From positions 2,816,001 through 2,880,000 of the forward strand of contig OX638351.1 in the NCBI GenBank assembly GCA_951813565.1: 64,000 bases of DNA. The letters are read 5' to 3'. Source of the DNA: an uncultured Poribacteria bacterium. Its GTDB lineage: Bacteria > Poribacteria > WGA-4E > WGA-3G. Below the pieces are notes generated by a model. The model was not told the origin of the DNA. It did no database searches and saw only the letters and a program-made list of their open reading frames with translations. The translations under genes were made by a program, and so were the position numbers. Positions 3,433 through 21,892 of this stretch are shown piece by piece (positions within the stretch are counted from its first letter, which is position 1; every line of letters begins with the position of its first letter).

Positions 3433-4629
3433 TCAACCAAGCAATACGAGGTTATCCCGATGTATAATTTCATCGTAATCGTGATAACCGAGAATTTTTT
3501 CTATATCCTGCGTCTGCTTTCCAGCGAGTTTTGAAGTTTCTGTGGAGTTATAATTTATCAAGCCACGAGCGAATTCCACTCCATTTTCGGTGAAACACGA
3601 GACCGTATCACTGTAATTAAAATGTCCTTCGACGCGCCGAATACCTGCAGGCAATAAACTTTTTCCACCTTGCACAAGTGCGTCTCGTGCGCCATTGTCT
3701 ACAACAAGGTAACCTTTGGGTGGACGTGAATAGGCGATCCAGCGTTTACGTCCAGAGATACGAGTATTGGGAAGGAAAAGTGTGCCGAGCAGTTCGCCTT
3801 TAAGGAGGCGCGTAACTATAAGAGGCTCTCGACCATACGCGATAACTACCATTTCCCCAGAAGCAGTAACAATTTCGGAGGCTCGCAACTTGGTAATCAT
3901 GCCGCCAGTACCGCTGGTTGTGCCAGCTTGCCCCGCGGCTTTCCACATTTCCTCCGAAATAACGTTGACGGTGTGGATTAATTCCGAATCTGGATTTTGT
4001 CTCGGATCTTCTGTGAAAAAACCGTGCTGATCGGAGAGAATAACGAGGAGATCGGCTTGGACAAGGTTTGTTACGTAGGCTGAAAGTGTATCGTTATCGC
4101 CTACCTTAATTTCGTCTACAGCGACACTGTCGTTTTCATTAATAATAGGAATGGCATCAAGTTGAAGCAGCGCATGCAAAGCGTCATTCATACGGGTGTA
4201 ACGTTTCCTGTCGGAGAAATCATCCTGTGTGAGCAAATGCGTGCTGCACACTTGTTGATAGTGGCGGAAACGTTCTTCGTAAGCAGCCATCAATCGAATC
4301 TGTCCGACAGCAGCAGATGCTTGCAACTCGGGTAACGTCTGCGGTTTTGTGCTAAGACCGAGATAGGGCCACCCTGCCGCAATCGCTCCCGACGTGACCA
4401 AGATAACTTCAACTCCATTTTGTTTAACAGTCGCTAAATCGTGAACAAGACCATCAAGGGCAGATTCATTGATGCGCAGGTTGTCTGAAATGGTGCTACT
4501 ACCAACTTTTACGACAATGCGTTGGACATTAGATAAACATTCACGATCTCTAACCTGCTTATGTTGATCCATACCGTTGATTTGTCGGTGCGACTGTGTC
4601 TGAGTGAAAATCTCACCAGATTTTTCCAT
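3433..4629 (-). CDS. proB: Glutamate 5-kinase with PUA domain (start uncertain)
   Basis: RIVVKVGSS, PIINENDSV, GDNDTLSA, GTGGMITKL, SLLPAGI, IIHRDNLV. Confidence 0.97.
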   Translation of the reverse strand: MEKSGEIFTQTQSHRQINGMDQHKQVRDRECLSNVQRIVVKVGSSTISDNLRINESALDGLVHDLATVKQNGVEVILVTSGAIAAGWPYLGLSTKPQTLPELQASAAVGQIRLMAAYEERFRHYQQVCSTHLLTQDDFSDRKRYTRMNDALHALLQLDAIPIINENDSVAVDEIKVGDNDTLSAYVTNLVQADLLVILSDQHGFFTEDPRQNPDSELIHTVNVISEEMWKAAGQAGTTSGTGGMITKLRASEIVTASGEMVVIAYGREPLIVTRLLKGELLGTLFLPNTRISGRKRWIAYSRPPKGYLVVDNGARDALVQGGKSLLPAGIRRVEGHFNYSDTVSCFTENGVEFARGLINYNSTETSKLAGKQTQDIEKILGYHDYDEIIHRDNLVLLG

Positions 4630-6020: not shown

Positions 6021-7133
6021 TTAGGCAGCCAAGCCTGCCTGTTTGATATTGATAGCAGCATTGATGTCTCTGTCGTGGTGTGAACCACATTCGGGACATG
6101 TCCACTGTCTATCTGCGAGAGAGAGTTCTTTGTTATGGTATCCACAATCACTACAAGGTTTTGTTGTTGCTATCCATTGAGAGATTTGCACAAGTTTTTT
6201 GCCGTGCTTCGCACACTTCTGTTCCAATATCTGAAGAAACTGGTAGAAAGAATGGTCAGAAACTTTACGTCCCCATAATCGTTTCATACCGTCAAGGTTC
6301 AGCGTTTCCAAAATGAGTGTGTCAAACTCTACACAAAGTTTTGAGGCAAGTTTCCATTGCCAATCTTCTCTTTGTCGGGCAACTTTTCTGTGTTGCCTTG
6401 CTAAAGCACGGCACGCACGATAATAGTTGTTAGAACCTTTGACTTTACGACTGAGTGCTTTGTTGAGAGATCGCAACGTGTTGAGTGATTGTTTGAAAAA
6501 CTGCGGAGATTGTCCCTTGTTGCCTTCGTCGCTTGTGAGGAACGTTTTGTTTCCGTAATCAAATCCTGCGCTCTTACCCGTCTTGGGTTTGGGTTCGGAA
6601 TCCTCAACATTCTCGCACGAAAAGCATATCCAATAGTCACCGCACCTGTCACGTTTGATCGTGATCGTCTTGATGACACCTTTGATTTCACGGTGTTTGT
6701 GAAAGGAAAACCATGTATCTATACAGTTGATTTTGATACGGTTATCTTCAAGTTTGTAGCCCGCTTGTGTGAAGGTCATGGAGTTGTATTTGTGTCTCGG
6801 TTTGATTTTCGGTCTACCCACTTTACGCGTTGTTTTGCCCGCTTTTCGGTCTTCGATATTCTCAAAGAAAGCGTCTTGAGATTTACCATAACGTAGGACA
6901 ACGTCTTGAACAACTTGACTCGGCAAGTCCGCCCAGTGTGGTTTAGTTGTTTTTTTGAGTTTCGCAACATGTGCCTTCAGACGATACGCAGACAAATTTT
7001 TGCCGAACATGCGATAATACCTACGTGCCAAACGCATGATATGTAGATGGATTTCCCACATATCATCAAGCATATTGCCGAGTTTGATTGTGTTAGATTG
7101 GTGTTGAAGTTTGAACTTGTGAGATTTTCTCAT
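6021..7133 (-). CDS. tnpB: RNA-guided endonuclease TnpB
   Basis: RuvC-I GFDYG, RuvC-II LETLNL, zinc finger CSDCG..CPECG, RuvC-III HDRDINAAINI; catalytic residues intact. Confidence 0.95.
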   Translation of the reverse strand: MRKSHKFKLQHQSNTIKLGNMLDDMWEIHLHIMRLARRYYRMFGKNLSAYRLKAHVAKLKKTTKPHWADLPSQVVQDVVLRYGKSQDAFFENIEDRKAGKTTRKVGRPKIKPRHKYNSMTFTQAGYKLEDNRIKINCIDTWFSFHKHREIKGVIKTITIKRDRCGDYWICFSCENVEDSEPKPKTGKSAGFDYGNKTFLTSDEGNKGQSPQFFKQSLNTLRSLNKALSRKVKGSNNYYRACRALARQHRKVARQREDWQWKLASKLCVEFDTLILETLNLDGMKRLWGRKVSDHSFYQFLQILEQKCAKHGKKLVQISQWIATTKPCSDCGYHNKELSLADRQWTCPECGSHHDRDINAAINIKQAGLAA

Positions 7134-7230: not shown

Positions 7231-8320
7231 CAGGACTTACGCAGTCTTGAAGATTATTGAAGGATTTGAGAGTTGATGTCGTAAATAATCGTCCAATAAG
7301 CTATCTTTAAGCTCATAAATTGTTCTACCAACTGCACGGGCAGTGCGTGTCAAACAGACCCATACTTGAAAACAACACGCAATATGATTTCTTTGCGCAC
7401 GCAACTTGCGACATTGACATTTACCAATACCAGTGACTTGTTTGATCTCACGATGAAATTGCTCAATCTTCCAACGCACTTTACATTCTTGGATTGTGGC
7501 ATCCGCATCTGATTGAGATAAATCGTTTGTAGCGATATATACCTTGTGTCCGTTAGAGGACGCTATCCGGAACAACTTCACTTGATGTCCATTTGGAAAC
7601 TTATTGATGTGCACGCGTTTTCCTTGTCGTATTTCTGTTTGGGTCCAACATAAATCTTGGACTTGTTGGTGTTGTTCAACACCATCCGTATCATTGACAA
7701 GACGATTACGCTTGAGAGGCACATAGTAAATCTTGGAAAGTTTTTCAATCGCTTTGATGACTTTCATTGACGCATACCAAGCATCCATGAGCACAGTCCG
7801 AAACGGGAGTTGTTTTTTCAAGTAGACATTGTGCAACATTTCCAGTAAATGGTCTATTTTGGTTTTACCATCATGATCTTTGTCAAAAATACGATAATCA
7901 ATGATCCAATATTCTTGCGTCTTTGGATTGACATAAAGACACGTGACAATACCGATGCCTACAACGACTTTTTTGTCGCTACCACTCCATTGAGAACGAA
8001 GGGCTTCAATCTCTTTGGCATGGAGTTTAGGAAGCACAAAATCATCAAAAACTATGTATCCTTCATCATCATACTCAATGTCATCCTTTACGGATTGCCA
8101 GAGTTCGCTTGAAGAAATGTTTTCATTTCTCAAGAAACGATTGAGTTGATCGTGGCTCCATTTTTCTGTCTGAGCAGCAAAGTAGGTTTGTGTCCAATTC
8201 GTGAAACTTGCTATCAAAAACTGACAATAATCGGAAAATAGGTTTTCCTTCTTTTGAGAGTGGGAAAATGTAATCATAATAGAATAGTATACACCATTTT
8301 ATAAAAATGCGTAAGTCCTG
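7231..8320 (-). mobile_element. IS701-like insertion sequence, 1090 bp
   Basis: TIR CAGGACTTACGCA / TGCGTAAGTCCTG; flanking direct repeat AGTATAT. Confidence 0.9.
7237..8277 (-). CDS. IS701-family DDE transposase
   Basis: IVFDD, VLMDAWY, RWKIEQFHREIKQVTG, CQCRKLRAQRNH. Confidence 0.9.
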   Translation of the reverse strand: MITFSHSQKKENLFSDYCQFLIASFTNWTQTYFAAQTEKWSHDQLNRFLRNENISSSELWQSVKDDIEYDDEGYIVFDDFVLPKLHAKEIEALRSQWSGSDKKVVVGIGIVTCLYVNPKTQEYWIIDYRIFDKDHDGKTKIDHLLEMLHNVYLKKQLPFRTVLMDAWYASMKVIKAIEKLSKIYYVPLKRNRLVNDTDGVEQHQQVQDLCWTQTEIRQGKRVHINKFPNGHQVKLFRIASSNGHKVYIATNDLSQSDADATIQECKVRWKIEQFHREIKQVTGIGKCQCRKLRAQRNHIACCFQVWVCLTRTARAVGRTIYELKDSLLDDYLRHQLSNPSIIFKTA

Positions 8321-11738: not shown

Positions 11739-12755
11739 TTAGGGATGTAACGCTGTTTTAACACCGCGTTGCGCGATAGCGTTATCAAAAGCTTCTAAAC
11801 CTTGTGAAATGGAAAACTGATCGGTTAGCAAAGGTTTGAAATTGATTGCTTCTTGTAGTAGGAGCTGGCGGGATTCTTGAAGGCTTGCTCGGGAAAATGC
11901 CCACGAAGCCATCAGTTTGTGTCCGGTATAGTGAAATTCTTCTAAGTTTATGCGAAGTTCCTCACCTTCCGGCGCAAGACCGAAAAAGTTGATACAACCG
12001 CCTTTGCGTATAACCTGAAAAGCGAGGTTAATCACTGACGTTTTATTTGTCGTAGCGGAGATGACGGTATCAACACCGCCGTGGGTGATTTCATGGAGAT
12101 GTGCAACATTGTCAGGAGAAATATCAAAAGCGGCATCGGCCCCGACAGTTTCTGCGACAGATCTGCGGTAGGGTAGAGGGTCCAGAACGTAGGTTGCTAA
12201 ACCTGCTCGTTTCGTCAATTGGGTGAACATCAACCCGATGGGACCAGCACCGAGGATGGCAACAGTGTTTTGGAAAATGGTTTCTTGCATCGCATTTAGG
12301 CAGCAGCCTAACGGTTCAAGGAAAAGTAGTTCTTCTGGTGGGATGGTGTCTGGCACTCGGATGAGTTTGCCCGTGTCTATGCCGTGTTTCGGCATCCGCA
12401 TGTATTCGGCGTAGCCGCCATCAATGTCGTGTCCGATACCTTCAATCGTATCGCAGTATTTGTCTTTGTCATTTCGGCAATGCACACAACTCCCGCACGA
12501 AAGCATCGGATTTACGGTGACCCGTTCGCCGACTTTTACTTCCGGATGCCGACTCTCAACGATTACACCTGCGAGTTCATGTCCCATCACAACAGGTGGT
12601 GAATAGTCTGATATATCGCCACGGAGCGCAGCAAGGTCAGATGCGCAGATACCGCACAACTCCATCTTGATAAGCACATCCCCGGCATTGAGTGTGGGAA
12701 TTGGTTTGTCTTGTATGCGTAACTGCTGAACTTTTTCAAAAACGATTGCTTTCAT
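11739..12755 (-). CDS. Zinc-dependent (MDR family) dehydrogenase
   Basis: MKAIV start, GICASD, GHE, CxxCxxC Zn site, GAGPIG. Confidence 0.92.
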   Translation of the reverse strand: MKAIVFEKVQQLRIQDKPIPTLNAGDVLIKMELCGICASDLAALRGDISDYSPPVVMGHELAGVIVESRHPEVKVGERVTVNPMLSCGSCVHCRNDKDKYCDTIEGIGHDIDGGYAEYMRMPKHGIDTGKLIRVPDTIPPEELLFLEPLGCCLNAMQETIFQNTVAILGAGPIGLMFTQLTKRAGLATYVLDPLPYRRSVAETVGADAAFDISPDNVAHLHEITHGGVDTVISATTNKTSVINLAFQVIRKGGCINFFGLAPEGEELRINLEEFHYTGHKLMASWAFSRASLQESRQLLLQEAINFKPLLTDQFSISQGLEAFDNAIAQRGVKTALHP

Positions 12756-12762
12756 ATACGTT

Positions 12763-14319
12763 CTACGCAACCAATGGGCAGTTTACGATGCTATAACTAT
12801 ATCCATCGCGCTTTTGAATTCTTCGGATTTCGGTAATATTTCCAGATTTTCTCGAATCTTTCTCTTCAGGTGCAAAGTATTCTACGCGAAGTTTACGAGG
12901 TTTGCCTACTGCGGTTTTATCAAAACAGTTGATTATCCCTTTCCATTTCCGATCTCGCTTTGTTATCTCAACGTAGTCAAACTTCGCAAAGCCATTTACA
13001 TGCGAAACCTTAGTTGATGGTTTGATGAAACCGGGTGCTTTCATGTCAAATATCTTGCCTACATTGTCGCGTCTACCATATCCTTTAGCTTCAATGATAG
13101 CAACTTGCAGCGACTTAGCTCGTTTCGGAACAATCGCAACAGACGCAGCATCATAATAATGCGTTTTCGGCAATCTGGCAAGATTCCGATGATGTGCTGT
13201 TTTTCCACCAGTGCCACTTATTATTGGGAGCCCTGTTGTTTTGAGTGTCTCAAACAGTTTCCACCGAATAGTGTTGATTGCTGCAGCATCAGAAAGACCC
13301 TTTTCAGATTTTCGGGCTGCTGCTTGGACCTTCTTTGCAAAATCAGTACCAAGCTTTTCTTCCAACTCGGCTCCGTGCAGTTTACCTTTCTTTTCGTTGC
13401 AGTCTTTACATGCCATCGTCAAGTTGCTCGGACGGTTATCTTCACGAACGGCTTTAGGTGCGATGTGTTCTACTTCTAAATGACGTTTGCCTTTTCCACA
13501 ATAAGCGCATTTTCTGCCAGTCAGTTCTAAAAGATATTCGCGTATCTCACGTCCCCATAAAGTTCCTTGTTGATATTCAATGCCATGTATACCAGGATTT
13601 TCCATCAACTGCATATCAAATTTCACCGTCTCAATTGCCAATTGTGTAATCGGGTAAATCTTACATAACCGTCGGGTCCAGGTCTCTAAATTGAAAACAC
13701 GGGACATCAAACTCGGTGCCACCCAACCATTATCGGCGACCCGTTGATGCACAACGCGAATGCGTCGCCAGCGTTTCTTTTGACGCTTGTTCGTTTTGGT
13801 GTCAGGTAAACGCTCCCAACGATACCGCTCGTCTAAAAACATCGCTTTTGACACGCGATTCAAGTCATTTTGAGATTTACTGGAATCCATTCCCTCTGGC
13901 ACTGAAGCACGTTCATATCTCCATCCGTTTTCTGTAAGAATTGGCACTTGACGTTTCCGATTTGCCCACCGAGCAGGACGATACCGTAGATTACGAGTTC
14001 TACGTCCTCTACGAAAGCCCGAACGTTTTTGAAGATTTCTTTTGATTTGCTGCCCACGGTGATGTAATTCCGCAGCATAGACTATATCCCCAGATTCAGA
14101 CACAATGGCGATTCCACTGATGCGTGATCCCGGGTCCCAACTCAACGTATACGGTTTTGTGACAATTTCCGATTCTGGAACTGCTTTCTTAAGAATAATC
14201 GTAAACGGGTATTTTCGCCATATTGCTGCTTCACCGCGTTTCAGTAGACGACGTGCTACAGCAGGATGACAAGGTTCTAAAGGGTTTTTGTCTGTATCAA
14301 TAACTGCTACTTTTGACAT
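12763..14319 (-). CDS. iscB: CRISPR-associated RNA-guided nuclease IscB with extra insertion after bridge helix
   Basis: PLMP-like N-term (PLEPCHPAVARRLL), RuvC-I WDPGS (D62), Arg-rich bridge helix, RuvC-II E230 (ETVKFD), HNH CAYC..EHI..N..CxxCN, RuvC-III H387/D390. Confidence 0.93.
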   Translation of the reverse strand: MSKVAVIDTDKNPLEPCHPAVARRLLKRGEAAIWRKYPFTIILKKAVPESEIVTKPYTLSWDPGSRISGIAIVSESGDIVYAAELHHRGQQIKRNLQKRSGFRRGRRTRNLRYRPARWANRKRQVPILTENGWRYERASVPEGMDSSKSQNDLNRVSKAMFLDERYRWERLPDTKTNKRQKKRWRRIRVVHQRVADNGWVAPSLMSRVFNLETWTRRLCKIYPITQLAIETVKFDMQLMENPGIHGIEYQQGTLWGREIREYLLELTGRKCAYCGKGKRHLEVEHIAPKAVREDNRPSNLTMACKDCNEKKGKLHGAELEEKLGTDFAKKVQAAARKSEKGLSDAAAINTIRWKLFETLKTTGLPIISGTGGKTAHHRNLARLPKTHYYDAASVAIVPKRAKSLQVAIIEAKGYGRRDNVGKIFDMKAPGFIKPSTKVSHVNGFAKFDYVEITKRDRKWKGIINCFDKTAVGKPRKLRVEYFAPEEKDSRKSGNITEIRRIQKRDGYSYSIVNCPLVA

Positions 14320-14330
14320 TTTTTATCCGT

Positions 14331-14580
14331 GGATGTTGAGATACCCGAAAGCACCTCAACATCCAAAGCTCGCCTTGCGGCGGTAATGTGAGCCTCGTCA
14401 ATGTTATTTCTGCTTTATAACAGGGTTGACAGCGTATTGTAAAGCTGTTTACATTGCCCCGACAGCGCTCCCGGCTGGCTCATGTACCTGGAGGTGTCTA
14501 TATCAGAAATAACGGATTTAATGTTTCCAACCCATAAAGGCTTGACTAGATACCACTTGGGCATGTTTTTTGTTGCAATT
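14331..14580 (-). ncRNA. omegaRNA/HEARO-like scaffold with 5' anti-repeat (tracrRNA-like)
   Basis: Minus strand carries HEARO-like blocks CGTTATTTCTG..GACACC..GCCAG..CTGTC..TAAACAG..CAGAAATAACATTGACGAGG..TTACC..CGCAAGGCG; anti-repeat 14549-14578; 3' hairpin 14331-14364. Confidence 0.8.
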
Positions 14581-14673
14581 TTTGCCGTCAACCTCCCAGC
14601 AAAAATGCAAGATTGGAGGTCGACTGCAAACTCTTAAGACTGACGCTTGACGCAGCTTGACTTTAAGTATAGG
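14581..14673. promoter_or_regulatory. Putative CRISPR leader with inverted repeat
   Basis: TTTGCCGTCAACCTCC..GGAGGTCGACTGCAAA palindrome next to the intact end of the array. Confidence 0.5.
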
Positions 14674-16445
14674 GTTGCAACTCAAACATGCCCAAGCGAT
14701 AACTGCTATCTTCAGCAAGTATCTGACCTTCCTTTTGGGCAAGTTGCAACTCAAACATGCCCAAGCGATAACCTTCAAACGTGTGCGAAAGGCGTTCAGC
14801 ATCTTTTTCGTTGCAACTCAAACATGCCCAAGCGATAACTCTGGTCTGCTGCTTCGTTTATAATGTCCTCAATAGCGTTGCAACTCAAACATGCCCAAGC
14901 GATAACTTATTTAAACGCATATCAAAAATGATAGCACTAAAAGTTGCAACTCAAACATGCCCAAGCGATAACTTGTTCAGCGGATATATCATCACTGGAT
15001 TTGACGCGTTGCAACTCAAACATGCCCAAGCGATAACACTATTCTATGAGACATTTGAGATAAAGCAAAAATTGTTGCAACTCAAACATGCCCAAGCGAT
15101 AACGTTTACCCCTCCGTTTTGCCTCACCAGTGACATCTACCGGTTGCAACTCAAACATGCCCAAGCGATAACTATGTGATGCCGCAATCTCCCAAGATGT
15201 TGGACTTAAGTTGCAACTCAAACATGCCCAAGCGATAACTTTCGATCCTGAAATACCATATGCTTGGGAGCGTGAGTTGCAACTCAAACATGCCCAAGCG
15301 ATAACGCGCGGACCGGCTTTGGTGCGTTCCGCTAATCCGTGATGTTGCAACTCAAACATGCCCAAGCGATAACTTCGGCACATACAACCCTGTAGCACCA
15401 CCTGTCTCGCGTTGCAACTCAAACATGCCCAAGCGATAACACAGAAGGCTTAGACGATTACATGAAACTCAAAAGTCGGTTGCAACTCAAACATGCCCAA
15501 GCGATAACCGAGAAGTAACGTGTGTTATCATTTTCATCTTTCCAGTTGCAACTCAAACATGCCCAAGCGATAACATGTAAAACACCCTTGACTGTCTCAG
15601 GCGTAACCAAGTTGCAACTCAAACATGCCCAAGCGATAACGAAGTACCAAGACCACGCTGCGCAAGATTGCCAGCAAAACGTTGCAACTCAAACATGCCC
15701 AAGCGATAACTTCGGCTGGGGTGATGAAGTATATCTTCAAGGAGTTAGTTGCAACTCAAACATGCCCAAGCGATAACATGGGCAATCGCAGTATCATCAA
15801 AACACTTGAGTTTGTTGCAACTCAAACATGCCCAAGCGATAACTCAGCTGTCCTTTTTCGTTTGCGATGTTGATGCCAAGTTGCAACTCAAACATGCCCA
15901 AGCGATAACGAAAATCGGGGATATAGTCGTAGCGCAAACAGAAGCGTTGCAACTCAAACATGCCCAAGCGATAACTGAGATTCTTTCTTGGGCAAATGAT
16001 GATAAAAATTCGGTTGCAACTCAAACATGCCCAAGCGATAACTCTACGGAGTCTGCACCTATAAATTGTGCGTAACGGTTGCAACTCAAACATGCCCAAG
16101 CGATAACAAAGATCGTCACCACAGGATTTAACAGCAAGGTCAAGGTTGCAACTCAAACATGCCCAAGCGATAACGTATTGGATTGCTCACGGGATTGTCC
16201 GATGCAACGCAGGTTGCAACTCAAACATGCCCAAGCGATAACCACCTCTGCTTTCACTGTAATTATTTTCTGTTTGGTGCGTTGCAACTCAAACATGCCC
16301 AAGCGATAACTCAAAACTTCGTTTAGCGACTTCTTTACTTCAACGCTATGTTGCAACTCAAACATGCCCAAGCGATAACCTATGAAAGCCATCGTTTTGA
16401 AAAAATCCATCAAGTTGCAACGCCAGCACGCTTAAGTGATATAAC
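14674..16445 (-). CRISPR. CRISPR array: 26 identical 30-bp repeats plus 1 degenerate repeat, 26 spacers of 34-40 nt
   Basis: + strand repeat GTTGCAACTCAAACATGCCCAAGCGATAAC; degenerate copy at 16414-16445; strand inferred from anti-repeat G-U pairing. Confidence 0.98.
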
Positions 16446-20484: not shown

Positions 20485-21892
20485 CGCAATAAGTAGTTTT
20501 GGACTTTCAAAAAGCCCTTAAGCGTTATGGAAATTTATACTTAATAGGGTATGAGAATTCGGAAAAGCACTAAACGGCGAAGACTAATTTCTAACTCTAA
20601 TCTGCGAGAACTTCTGCCCCTCCACCTCACATCGGTATAAAAGTTGAGCGCGCTTGATAGATACTTTGCAACGGCAGACAATTCTTCTAATCGTTTTGCC
20701 GTTGTGATATGAGTGTGGTCCAGCTTGTCAAGACCTTATTCTCTAAGTTCTTCTGCCATCGTTGAGTGAGTCTTCATCTCATACTCTCATTGACAAACTT
20801 ATCAAAAATGCTCTCAATGTTCCTATAGTTGTATTTATAGCACGCCTCTGCGACATATAGGGGCGTGTATTCAGTCCAATAGTGGTGATGACTTCCATAC
20901 CAAGCACGTTTGAGAAGTGACCAGAAGCCTTCAATCGTATTGGTATGGACATCACCGTCAACAAATTGTTCTTGATGATCAATGATATGGTGCTTCATCT
21001 CTTTACCGAGTGTGAGATAAGCCTTATACTCATCAGTCATCAACTGCGATTTATCTACTTTAACAACTTCGCGAATAAAATTTAAGATAGTCCGTCCCGT
21101 CAAATCTTTTGCGAGTCTTGCCACAACTTTCCCACCGCGTTCAATCGCTCCGATGATAGCATCTTTATCAGTGCCACGCCCACGCTTAGCAGGATCCCTG
21201 TCCTCTTTTTTGTTCGCTTTGCGAGGTTTACCCCCGACATAAGTTTCGTCAGCCTCTATGATACCTTGTAAGAGGATATTATCTTTAGCCATTTCAGCAC
21301 GGATGCATGTTCCCATACGCCACGCAGTCTTTTGATTCAAGTCCAAATCTCTTGCCAACTGATGACTTGAAAGACTCTTTTTAGCATTCGTCATCAACGA
21401 GATAGCCAAAAACCACTTCTGAAGTGCTATCTTTGTCCCGTGAAACACCGTGCCACAAGTAACCTTGAAAGTAGCAGTGCAATCGTGGCATTGCCAGCGC
21501 CCGATGCGTCCCAATTCCGTTTCTGTTCGTCTTGCAACGTTTGGGCAATCACAATGTGGACACTTCGGTTTACCCTTCCACCGAATACTCTCTAAATGTT
21601 CAATACAACTCTCTTGATCAGGGAATCGTTCCATCACTTTCAACAAATCCATCAGAAAACTCCTTTTTAGGAGTTGCTTTTTCTGACAGGTTTCTGATAC
21701 AATAATTAGATAAGACAGAATGCCAGAAAAGCAACTCGCTTTTTTGTGTTCAATTAGGGGGTTAGCAGCCCTCTAATTTCTTATCTAAATTGTATCATAT
21801 TTTCACAATTAAAACAAGCGAAAAATGTAGTCTACACAAGGATTTAGAGCGATTTTTAAAATTTTGTTGAAAGTCCAAAACTACTTATTGCG
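20485..21892 (-). mobile_element. IS1595-family insertion sequence
   Basis: 26-bp TIR CGCAATAAGTAGTTTTGGACTTTCAA; 8-bp TSD TTGAATAA. Confidence 0.92.
20774..21652 (-). CDS. IS1595-family transposase
   Basis: Zn ribbon CPHC..CHDC, EADETYVGG, MTDE, HTNTIEGFWSLLKR. Confidence 0.95.
   Translation of the reverse strand: MDLLKVMERFPDQESCIEHLESIRWKGKPKCPHCDCPNVARRTETELGRIGRWQCHDCTATFKVTCGTVFHGTKIALQKWFLAISLMTNAKKSLSSHQLARDLDLNQKTAWRMGTCIRAEMAKDNILLQGIIEADETYVGGKPRKANKKEDRDPAKRGRGTDKDAIIGAIERGGKVVARLAKDLTGRTILNFIREVVKVDKSQLMTDEYKAYLTLGKEMKHHIIDHQEQFVDGDVHTNTIEGFWSLLKRAWYGSHHHYWTEYTPLYVAEACYKYNYRNIESIFDKFVNESMR

Follow-up and report, generated by a model that had tools for sequence, protein, structure and literature searches.

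The iscB gene examined here lies in a 64,000-nucleotide stretch of the genome of an uncultured Poribacteria bacterium (GenBank assembly GCA_951813565.1, contig OX638351.1, positions 2,816,001 to 2,880,000; this whole stretch is called the window, and coordinates refer to it unless stated differently). The encoded nuclease carries a segment of 76 residues between its bridge helix and the second part of its split RuvC domain, at the position where Cas9 has its recognition (REC) lobe. This segment is one allele of a cassette that is variable throughout the protein family, and it probably represents a lineage-specific REC-like module for contact with nucleic acid. Judged by position, charge and conservation, its basic second hairpin would lie on a nucleic-acid backbone, most likely that of the guide:target heteroduplex on the side distal to the target-adjacent motif (TAM); a probability of roughly 55% is given to this reading.

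The cassette was delimited by two fixed anchors, the end of the motif R.R..RW.NR and the start of GW.APS, which in the window protein are represented by ARWANR and GWVAPSL (Table 1). The sequence-only reading that preceded this analysis had reported a basic insertion of about 70 residues between the two, with an NGW motif near either end, and both statements were confirmed: positions 13732-13950 of the reverse strand encode 73 residues, beginning with QVPIL and ending in RVAD, which form the inner part of the 76-residue cassette, and NGW is present at residues 131-133 and 197-199. Lysine and arginine account for 20 of the 76 residues (26%, vs. 19% in the rest of the protein), the net charge is +10, and the cassette contains three tryptophans and no cysteine. 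The basic charge is concentrated in residues 164-197 (net +9 in 34 residues), residues 138-163 being slightly acidic. The RRXRR profile is split by the cassette, profile positions 1-119 falling on residues 4-125 and positions 98-174 on residues 176-252, and relative to this family model the segment is an insertion. Between the same anchors only four residues were found in 33 of 51 distinct parsed IscB loci; the earlier statement on the shortness of this region in typical IscBs holds for these, but not for OgeuIscB, for whose REC linker about 40 residues are given in the relevant portion of Kato et al. (2022, PMC9640706).

In the AlphaFold2 model of the window protein (mean predicted local distance difference test score, pLDDT, 80.5) the cassette consists of a first beta-hairpin (hairpin 1), a loop rich in serine and acidic residues, and a basic module rich in tryptophan and arginine. 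The latter was modelled as a helix at residues 158-161, a strand at 166-170 (RYRWE), a second helix at 175-180 and a second strand at 184-188 (WRRIR), with PDTKTNKRQKK at its tip, which is the place where relatives hold further sub-inserts. Fold searches with the whole models of the window IscB and of a relative with a 132-residue cassette (P0006) were dominated by the IscB core and are uninformative on the 76-residue part. A pattern of RW, twelve residues and NGW occurs twice in the same register, at residues 117-133 (13921-13971, reverse strand) and 183-199 (13723-13773, reverse strand). An internal duplication as the source of the two NGW motifs was rejected, the self-alignment score of 31 being reached by 383 of 2000 shuffles, and likewise a foreign origin by base composition, the GC content of the insert (0.465) being no outlier against that of the gene (0.445 ± 0.026).

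The assignment to the REC site follows from the alignment of the anchors together with the flanks defined by Kannan et al. (2025, Nat Biotechnol, PMC13180657), according to whom REC and REC-like insertions, both of IscBs and of type II-D Cas9, are bordered by the conserved motifs FNNR and LTP. ARWANR aligns with PRFNNR of TbaIscB, and GWVAPS aligns with GWLTPT of OgeuIscB-type proteins and with WLPPSL of TbaIscB. Extra residues between FNNR and LTP, the mark of a REC-like insertion, are thus present in the form of the 76 residues between ARWANR and GWVAPSL, and by this sequence comparison the cassette occupies the REC insertion site, which bears out the earlier placement of the insertion at the position of the Cas9 REC lobe. 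Both anchors are strongly conserved among 88 relatives: N120 and R121 of ARWANR are invariant and W118 is conserved in at least 90%, and in the GWVAPSL region W199, P202, S203 and L204 are invariant, as is W133 within hairpin 1.

The 76-residue version was found in 39 relatives, with a mean identity to the window cassette of 69%. Their consensus retains W133 and the motifs QN.FNRVS, RYrWERLP and KKRWrR.R; the loop at residues 139-148 is variable. In all four DNA pairs compared, the proportion of nonsynonymous differences (pN) was 0.17-0.24 in the insert and 0.18-0.21 in the rest of the gene, and the synonymous proportion (pS) was 0.73-0.82, i.e. saturated. Given equal pN in the insert and the remainder of the gene at saturated synonymous divergence, the cassette is maintained by purifying selection and is no disordered spacer. 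These data bear directly on the idea that the cassette is a tolerated linker expansion without function. The poorly conserved loop with its pLDDT below 50 would suit such an expansion, as would the Lys- or Pro-rich stretches of low-complexity appearance at the tips of some relatives; the equal pN, the preservation of the Trp and Arg motifs across the 39 sequences and the pLDDT of 74-89 over residues 150-190 speak against it, and it is considered the least probable of all explanations. A segment predicted to be disordered, which the sequence-only reading had named as a possible outcome, was accordingly not what was found: the cassette is conserved, selected and partly folded. The same 76-residue form, without a joint at the cassette, is also contained in contigs of the DNA runs X6 and X7, which drop rare variants and show presence only.

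For the analysis of the family, 8000 candidates were scored, of which 3126 were significant; the best 120 were taken and 117 of them were parsed. Among these best 120 the site is 22, 30, 67, 74-76, 87, 96-104, 122, 129-133 or 142-149 residues long, and loci from genomes add linkers of 34 and 37 residues. Hairpin 1 is common to all cassette forms, the 22-residue linkers of the family consisting of hairpin 1 alone, and the forms of at least 67 residues also keep both tryptophan-containing strands. The latter forms differ mainly at the tip between these strands, which comprises about 10 residues in the window protein and is Pro- or Lys-rich, helical, or Tyr-rich and probably beta in others. The model of P0006 shows the same frame, including hairpin 1, with a confident helical bundle between the equivalent strands (H187-230, pLDDT 90-96). 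The earlier description of the segment as a nascent REC-like module therefore needs to be divided: a REC-like site and a conserved, selected and partly folded module were found, but the module is no one-off, being one allele of a variable family cassette. All named genome records with proteins of the family belong to Candidatus Poribacteria. A relative is present in 20 of 176 Poribacteria genomes, the window genome included; 39 further genomes of the genus had none with an E value of 1e-30 or lower, and a scan of metagenome contigs yielded only distant relatives (23 loci, 26-48% identity), none with a long cassette.

The distribution of the cassettes was compared with a tree of the protein backbone, for which the insert columns were left out (137 rows, FastTree; a quick IQ-TREE was later used for the approximately unbiased, AU, test). 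At least 23 changes are required on this tree to explain the nine length classes, and 6 for the division into long and short. Pairs of closely similar backbones carry dissimilar cassettes: the backbones of P0003 and P0006 are 92% identical and their cassettes 33%, and the corresponding values are 88% and 41% for P0001 and P0007, 90% and 27% for P0074 and P0065, and 95% and 68% for P0047 and P0053. Conversely, helical-type cassettes on distant backbones are 56-60% alike. Identity drops directly after RWANR and returns at NGW. A tree in which the 11 carriers of helical-type cassettes were constrained to a single clade was worse by 361 log-likelihood units (p-AU 4e-36); this group had been chosen with knowledge of the first tree. 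Since the genes of the mosaic pairs were predicted in metagenome assemblies, some may be chimeras of assembly, although several of them are clusters of 17-74 members or are located on contigs of 0.2-5 Mb. Because near-identical backbones carry unrelated cassettes, the sequences imply that whole REC-site cassettes were swapped by recombination.

Carried further, and tentatively, with odds put a little short of even, the REC site may be regarded as a recombining cassette locus, in which modules are exchanged between nucleases of 85-95% identity at the FNNR and LTP anchors. It would then form a living series of REC-lobe growth that is parallel to and independent of the origin of Cas9 and takes place on top of an undiminished omegaRNA. 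In this proposal the modules would range from a bare hairpin (22 residues) via a double hairpin (76 residues) and a Lys-rich tail to a four-helix bundle (130-133 residues) and a beta-rich domain (129-149 residues), and the series could be driven by the tuning of guide length and specificity or by pressure from inhibitors. The FNNR and LTP anchors are also the points used by engineers for REC swaps.

The same scatter of cassette types over the backbone tree, the mismatch between backbone and cassette identity bounded by RWANR and NGW, and the cost of a single helical-type clade would also be expected if the cassette were chiefly a variable surface, engaged in an arms race with, e.g., phage inhibitors that bind the REC side, or facing other partner proteins, with nucleic-acid contact being secondary. 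Within one cassette type, however, conservation equals that of the rest of the protein, which is unlike positive selection on a surface. No inhibitor is known, and none was sought; moreover, the caveats on the choice of the AU group and on chimeric assemblies apply here as well. A primarily variable surface is thus held to be improbable, and a REC-like contact module remains the preferred explanation.

Upstream of iscB, the locus contains an omegaRNA scaffold, an anti-repeat and a CRISPR array (Table 1). The HEARO match of the window scores 56 bits, below the gathering score of 83, which is reached by two relatives (83.3 and 83.4 bits), and the 5' strand of the outer omegaRNA stem is unpaired in cis. 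The duplex computed between repeat and anti-repeat was compared with 300 shuffled repeats (mean -21.9, standard deviation 2.6, best -31.3 kcal/mol), none of which reached its energy of -38.3 kcal/mol; pairing of the CRISPR RNA (crRNA) repeat with an anti-repeat of the kind found in trans-activating CRISPR RNA (tracrRNA), as in type II systems, is thus present in the computed duplex. The strand of the array was inferred from the anti-repeat and the HEARO match and is that of the omegaRNA and of iscB. Between positions 14320 and 16441, about 94 nt of spacer-like sequence separate the array from the anti-repeat within the HEARO/omegaRNA region, the last repeat being joined in cis to the anti-repeat. 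The repeat was found nowhere else in the 5.43-Mb genome, and the spacers have no self-targets in their own genome, with only matches of up to 20 nt. Read from the sequence, this layout is that of a two-RNA guide system without adaptation genes, i.e. of a CRISPR-linked IscB of the CasIscB/DelIscB kind.

As a weak hint, the omegaRNA region may be expressed. In contigs of the sponge metatranscriptome run X17 the word depth over positions 14381-14700 is about 490-1000, vs. 2.5 over part of iscB. Several of these contigs have an end near 14381, not far from where the HEARO match has its 3' end, but continue into unlike sequence, so that loci of relatives contribute; with their loose ends and possible origin in related loci, the contigs give no more than a weak hint of expression.

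No cas1 or cas2, as would belong to a type II system, and no cas4 was found among the 12 open reading frames (ORFs) of at least 150 residues that were scanned between positions 6021 and 24424. The two cas1 genes of the genome are located at 1.20 and 3.99 Mb, beside arrays at genome positions 1198128-1201295 and 3992477-3996436 with about 48 and 54 repeats, respectively, which are unlike the repeat of the IscB array. It was considered whether the cassette docks the machinery of spacer acquisition (Cas1-Cas2 acting in trans) or an RNA-processing enzyme and thereby links the nuclease to the growth or maturation of the array. Long cassettes do occur only beside arrays, two cas1 genes exist elsewhere in the genome, and the array holds 26 distinct spacers; the lack of adaptation genes among the scanned ORFs, the unlike repeats next to cas1 and the existence of arrays with 9-10 repeats beside linkers of only 30-34 residues nevertheless make such docking very unlikely.

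In order to relate cassette size to the arrays, upstream repeats were counted across the loci, L009 being left out since it lies at a contig end. No upstream repeats were found at the 33 loci with a 4-residue linker, 15 of which have less than 1.3 kb of upstream DNA. Loci with a 22-residue linker have 0 (L020), 1 (L018), 1 (L021) and 3-4 repeats (L023), the small array of L023 being homologous to the arrays of the family; L019, whose linker was not parsed, has two degenerate repeats. Nine repeats are present at L024 (30 residues), ten at L027 (34 residues), and 4-27 at all nine loci that have a cassette of at least 76 residues and upstream DNA. The loci of the family thus grade from one guide-plus-repeat unit up to 27 repeats. 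The place of the repeat is homologous in L018 and L021 (one unit), L019 (two degenerate units) and L020 (none), upstream of iscB at locus coordinates of about 3560-3720. The array of L022 was rejected as IscB-linked: its 37-nt repeat belongs to another family, it is 712 nt away, no anti-repeat scores above shuffles, and it is probably part of another system.

Long cassettes were thus seen only beside arrays, and no cassette of at least 67 residues was seen at a locus without repeats, which departs from a further outcome that the sequence-only reading had allowed for, namely that the insertion might be common in IscBs outside CRISPR loci. Arrays and strong anti-repeats also occur, however, without long cassettes. 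Because the loci are closely related, with only one contrast on the tree (L022 vs. L020) that separates linker length from array presence, the association between cassette and array has almost no independent support.

The main rival to contact with the target heteroduplex is that the module chiefly binds RNAs of the nuclease complex itself, either the omegaRNA or the repeat:anti-repeat duplex, and stabilises the assembly of the two-RNA guide rather than the reading of the target. It draws on the strong 26-pair duplex of the window and on the contrast between the 4-27 repeats of long-cassette loci and the 0-4 repeats of the 22-residue forms. Duplex strength, however, does not track cassette size: L027, with 34 residues and ten repeats, has an equally strong anti-repeat (-40.6 kcal/mol), and three of the four loci with 76 residues (L010, L011 and L016) have anti-repeats that are weak and interrupted, with energies (-25 to -29 kcal/mol) that shuffled repeats reach or nearly reach. 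In addition, the loci are not independent, and in the sole contrast the array of L022 is of the other repeat family and lacks an anti-repeat. A grip mainly on the guide RNAs is therefore regarded as doubtful, albeit less so than the remaining alternatives. A repeat:anti-repeat helix, which the insertion may support according to the earlier suggestion, does not need the cassette: L027 has its anti-repeat and ten repeats with a linker of 34 residues, and L023 has a small homologous array with one of 22 residues.

In the preferred reading, that of heteroduplex contact, crRNAs paired with the anti-repeat in the omegaRNA scaffold would serve as guide, and the basic second hairpin would run along the sugar-phosphate backbone of the TAM-distal guide:target heteroduplex. 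There the cassette may stabilise the R-loop and would probably extend the checked portion of the guide, adding to a full-length omegaRNA scaffold instead of replacing it. The heteroduplex is named as the likely partner by analogy with the REC linker of OgeuIscB and with REC grafts at the same site. As far as the consulted portions of the two sources go, deletion of the former lowers cleavage (Kato et al. 2022, PMC9640706), and among grafts placed between FNNR and LTP of OrufIscB, 43 of 55 active ones cut less with 5-7 mismatched TAM-distal bases (Kannan et al. 2025, PMC13180657).

Several points weigh against this reading. The contact with the heteroduplex is inferred from position. The cassette is predicted to be mostly beta and loop, with two short helices (158-161 and 175-180) and four strands in the model, unlike the alpha-helical bundle that makes up the REC lobe of Cas9, and both hairpin 1 and the loop were modelled with low confidence. 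Early Cas9 REC lobes have a conserved triple-helix bundle. Searched alone, the insert gave only a chance annexin match in the PDB (E 0.26), no family in Pfam, and only RRXRR fragments with scores of up to 0.87 in the ESM Atlas; among 1.84 billion representatives it had four matches, i.e. two full-length IscBs of the family and fragments of 182 and 186 residues. By these searches no sequence relative of the insert was detected outside its own IscB family. A large cassette is furthermore not needed for activity in the family, because PbaIscB-4, which has a 22-residue linker, is also listed with the TAM NGG in the ortholog table of Kannan et al. (2025, PMC13180657). The repeat is 30 nt long and the median spacer 36-37 nt alike for cassettes of 30, 34, 76, 133 and 149 residues. 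That longer cassettes go with longer spacers was thus rejected, and nothing computed points to the longer guides that the support of a longer guide-target duplex, as proposed at the outset, would suggest. Finally, the HEARO model was covered over its whole length in 15 of 16 loci, with lengths of 184-245 nt in the 22-residue forms, 236-296 nt in the 76-residue forms and 222-228 nt in the longest forms. Since the RNA is full-length and unshortened in the long-cassette loci, the cassette is an addition to a complete RNA scaffold and no replacement of it; replacement of RNA by protein was rejected for the window clade.

Apart from the cassette, the window protein has the features expected of an IscB. 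It contains the N-terminal PLMP/RRXRR region with an Arg-rich bridge helix, matches the Pfam family RRXRR (PF14239) with an E value of 3.4e-60 and 203 bits (cut-off 25), and matches HNH (E 2e-9) and HNH_5 within the split RuvC. Among the 88 relatives H285, N308 and D390 are invariant, and D62, E230 and H387 are conserved in at least 90%. The closest solved structure by sequence is that of TbaIscB (E 4.4e-35), with OgeuIscB (E 5e-19) and IscBs of its type (about 1e-19 to 1e-20) also among the best, and in the top nine rows of the structure comparison with IsrB and IscB the model reached VIA Z values of 20.7-24.8 with root-mean-square deviations of 3.1-13 over 248-375 aligned residues.

Table 1. 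Position of the cassette, its parts and the surrounding features in the window
Feature	Position	Strand	Remarks
iscB coding sequence, 518 aa	12763..14319	-	PLMP/RRXRR N-terminus, split RuvC, bridge helix, HNH, C-terminal TAM-interacting region
GWVAPSL, RuvC-II start	13708..13728	-	LTP equivalent
REC-site cassette, 76 aa (aa 122-197)	13729..13956	-	between the fixed anchors
Basic W/R-rich module (aa 150-190)	13750..13872	-	pLDDT 74-89
Ser/acidic loop (aa 139-148)	13876..13905	-	pLDDT <50; variable in the consensus of 39 cassettes
Beta-hairpin 1 (aa 124-137), QVPILTENGWRYER	13909..13950	-	AlphaFold2 strands 124-129 and 132-137; pLDDT about 58
ARWANR, bridge-helix end	13957..13974	-	FNNR equivalent
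omegaRNA (HEARO) scaffold	14383..14624	-	putative tracrRNA-like role; Rfam RF02033, E 7.7e-10, model 1-211 of 211
Anti-repeat within the omegaRNA region	14548..14579	-	RNAduplex with repeat, -38.3 kcal/mol, 26 pairs
CRISPR array	14674..16441	-	26 exact 30-nt repeats and one degenerate terminal copy; 26 different spacers of 33-40 nt

The iscB gene is flanked by one gene on each side, an alcohol dehydrogenase (ADH)-like and a Gfo/Idh/MocA gene. Its stop end shares 8 nt (12763-12770) with the start of the downstream ADH-like ORF (11739-12770, reverse strand), and as no transposon ends are evident, the window iscB appears to be a domesticated, chromosomally fixed copy. No Y1 transposase (TnpA), as carried by IS200/IS605 elements, was found among the 12 scanned ORFs, and this is often so in domesticated copies of IscB. 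A TnpB-like ORF (OrfB_IS605 and Cas12f1-like TNB; 6021-7133, reverse strand) is located 5.6 kb from iscB, and a DDE transposase (7237-8277, reverse strand) and an IS1595 transposase (20774-21652, reverse strand) are no more than 8 kb away from the IscB locus.

The acquisition of the REC lobe on the way from an IscB-like ancestor to Cas9 has been studied mostly with a few structures and engineered grafts. To this the window adds one more natural REC-site module, which alone is of modest value because the module class and the cassettes of the family have already been catalogued. Among its relatives, near-identical backbones carry a graded range of other modules, together with CRISPR arrays and a full omegaRNA, and this cassette series is a natural experiment on the benefit of a small REC module to a nuclease whose RNA scaffold is still unreduced. 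Of most interest to specialists are the series itself, the exchange that seems to occur at the FNNR and LTP anchors, and the full omegaRNA in array-bearing loci.

Several known counterparts differ from the window cassette in place, fold or lineage. In OgeuIscB the REC linker forms a lining of the heteroduplex channel, makes contact with the omegaRNA and is required for full activity, according to the relevant portion of Kato et al. (2022, PMC9640706; PDB 7xht). OgeuIscB-type proteins have about 36 extra residues before FNNR (chain residues about 116-151; fnnr occupies 152-155 and is itself directly followed by GW), whereas in the window IscB the extra residues come after the FNNR-like motif, and the search of the insert against the PDB gave no sequence similarity between the two. 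The zinc-finger insert of CzcbIscB and TbaIscB and the REC lobe of type II-D Cas9 share the insertion point between FNNR and LTP with the window protein (Kannan et al. 2025; PDB 9k30, 9k31, 9k32, 9lgi); as far as the consulted material describes them, the former are zinc fingers of the CxxC...CxxC type and Cas9d has helical REC domains, in contrast to the mostly beta and loop cassette of the window with its lack of cysteine. An IscB from a metagenome-assembled genome of Spirochaetia (L048:4001-5170) carries a 35-residue insert with two CxxC pairs at the same site, which resembles the zinc-finger REC insert of CzcbIscB.

The CRISPR-associated CasIscB/DelIscB systems of Altae-Tran 2021, as described by Zhang et al. 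(2025, PMC12660989), combine an IscB, an upstream CRISPR array and a repeat/anti-repeat noncoding RNA beside an omegaRNA-like scaffold, as in the window. DelIscB is given there as a protein of 457 residues with only a short 'Linker (Rec)' and an effective guide of about 15-16 nt. Its membership in the window family was rejected, the published mutation sites matching at most 4 of 14 residues in any of the best 120 relatives, and because of this poor match DelIscB is, by sequence, of another lineage than the window IscB.

No paper naming both 'Poribacteria' and 'IscB' was found, and no description of natural REC-cassette exchange in IscB was among the 10 listed of 212 matching papers; natural swapping of the PAM (protospacer adjacent motif)-interacting domain in Cas9 has reportedly been described. 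The main text of Kannan et al. (2025, PMC13180657) does not contain the name PbaIscB, and the parts of that publication considered here hold no description of the size series of the cassettes, their exchange between backbones or the link to arrays. Cassettes from Poribacteria are, however, listed in its supplement, and its orthologs from Candidatus Poribacteria include PbaIscB-2, PbaIscB-3 and PbaIscB-4. The sheet 'REC domain summary' includes the 76-residue cassette of the contig behind L010, with the same boundaries as that of the window and about 63% identity to it (our own count of the strings), the 131-residue cassette of PbaIscB-3, the linkers of L027 (34 residues) and L022 (37 residues), and a 22-residue linker of the consensus type of the base form. 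In the ortholog table PbaIscB-3, whose sequence equals that of P0060 (131-residue cassette) over the portion compared, is marked '(CR)' for CRISPR-linked, with the TAM NGG and a scaffold that starts with the repeat. The Poribacteria cassettes of that study thus share protein family, insertion site and boundaries with the cassette of the window, which differs from them in sequence. Both the idea of a REC module and the cassettes of the Poribacteria IscB family are therefore already catalogued in the consulted parts of Kannan et al. (2025, PMC13180657), and the window cassette is a further, distinct sequence among them.

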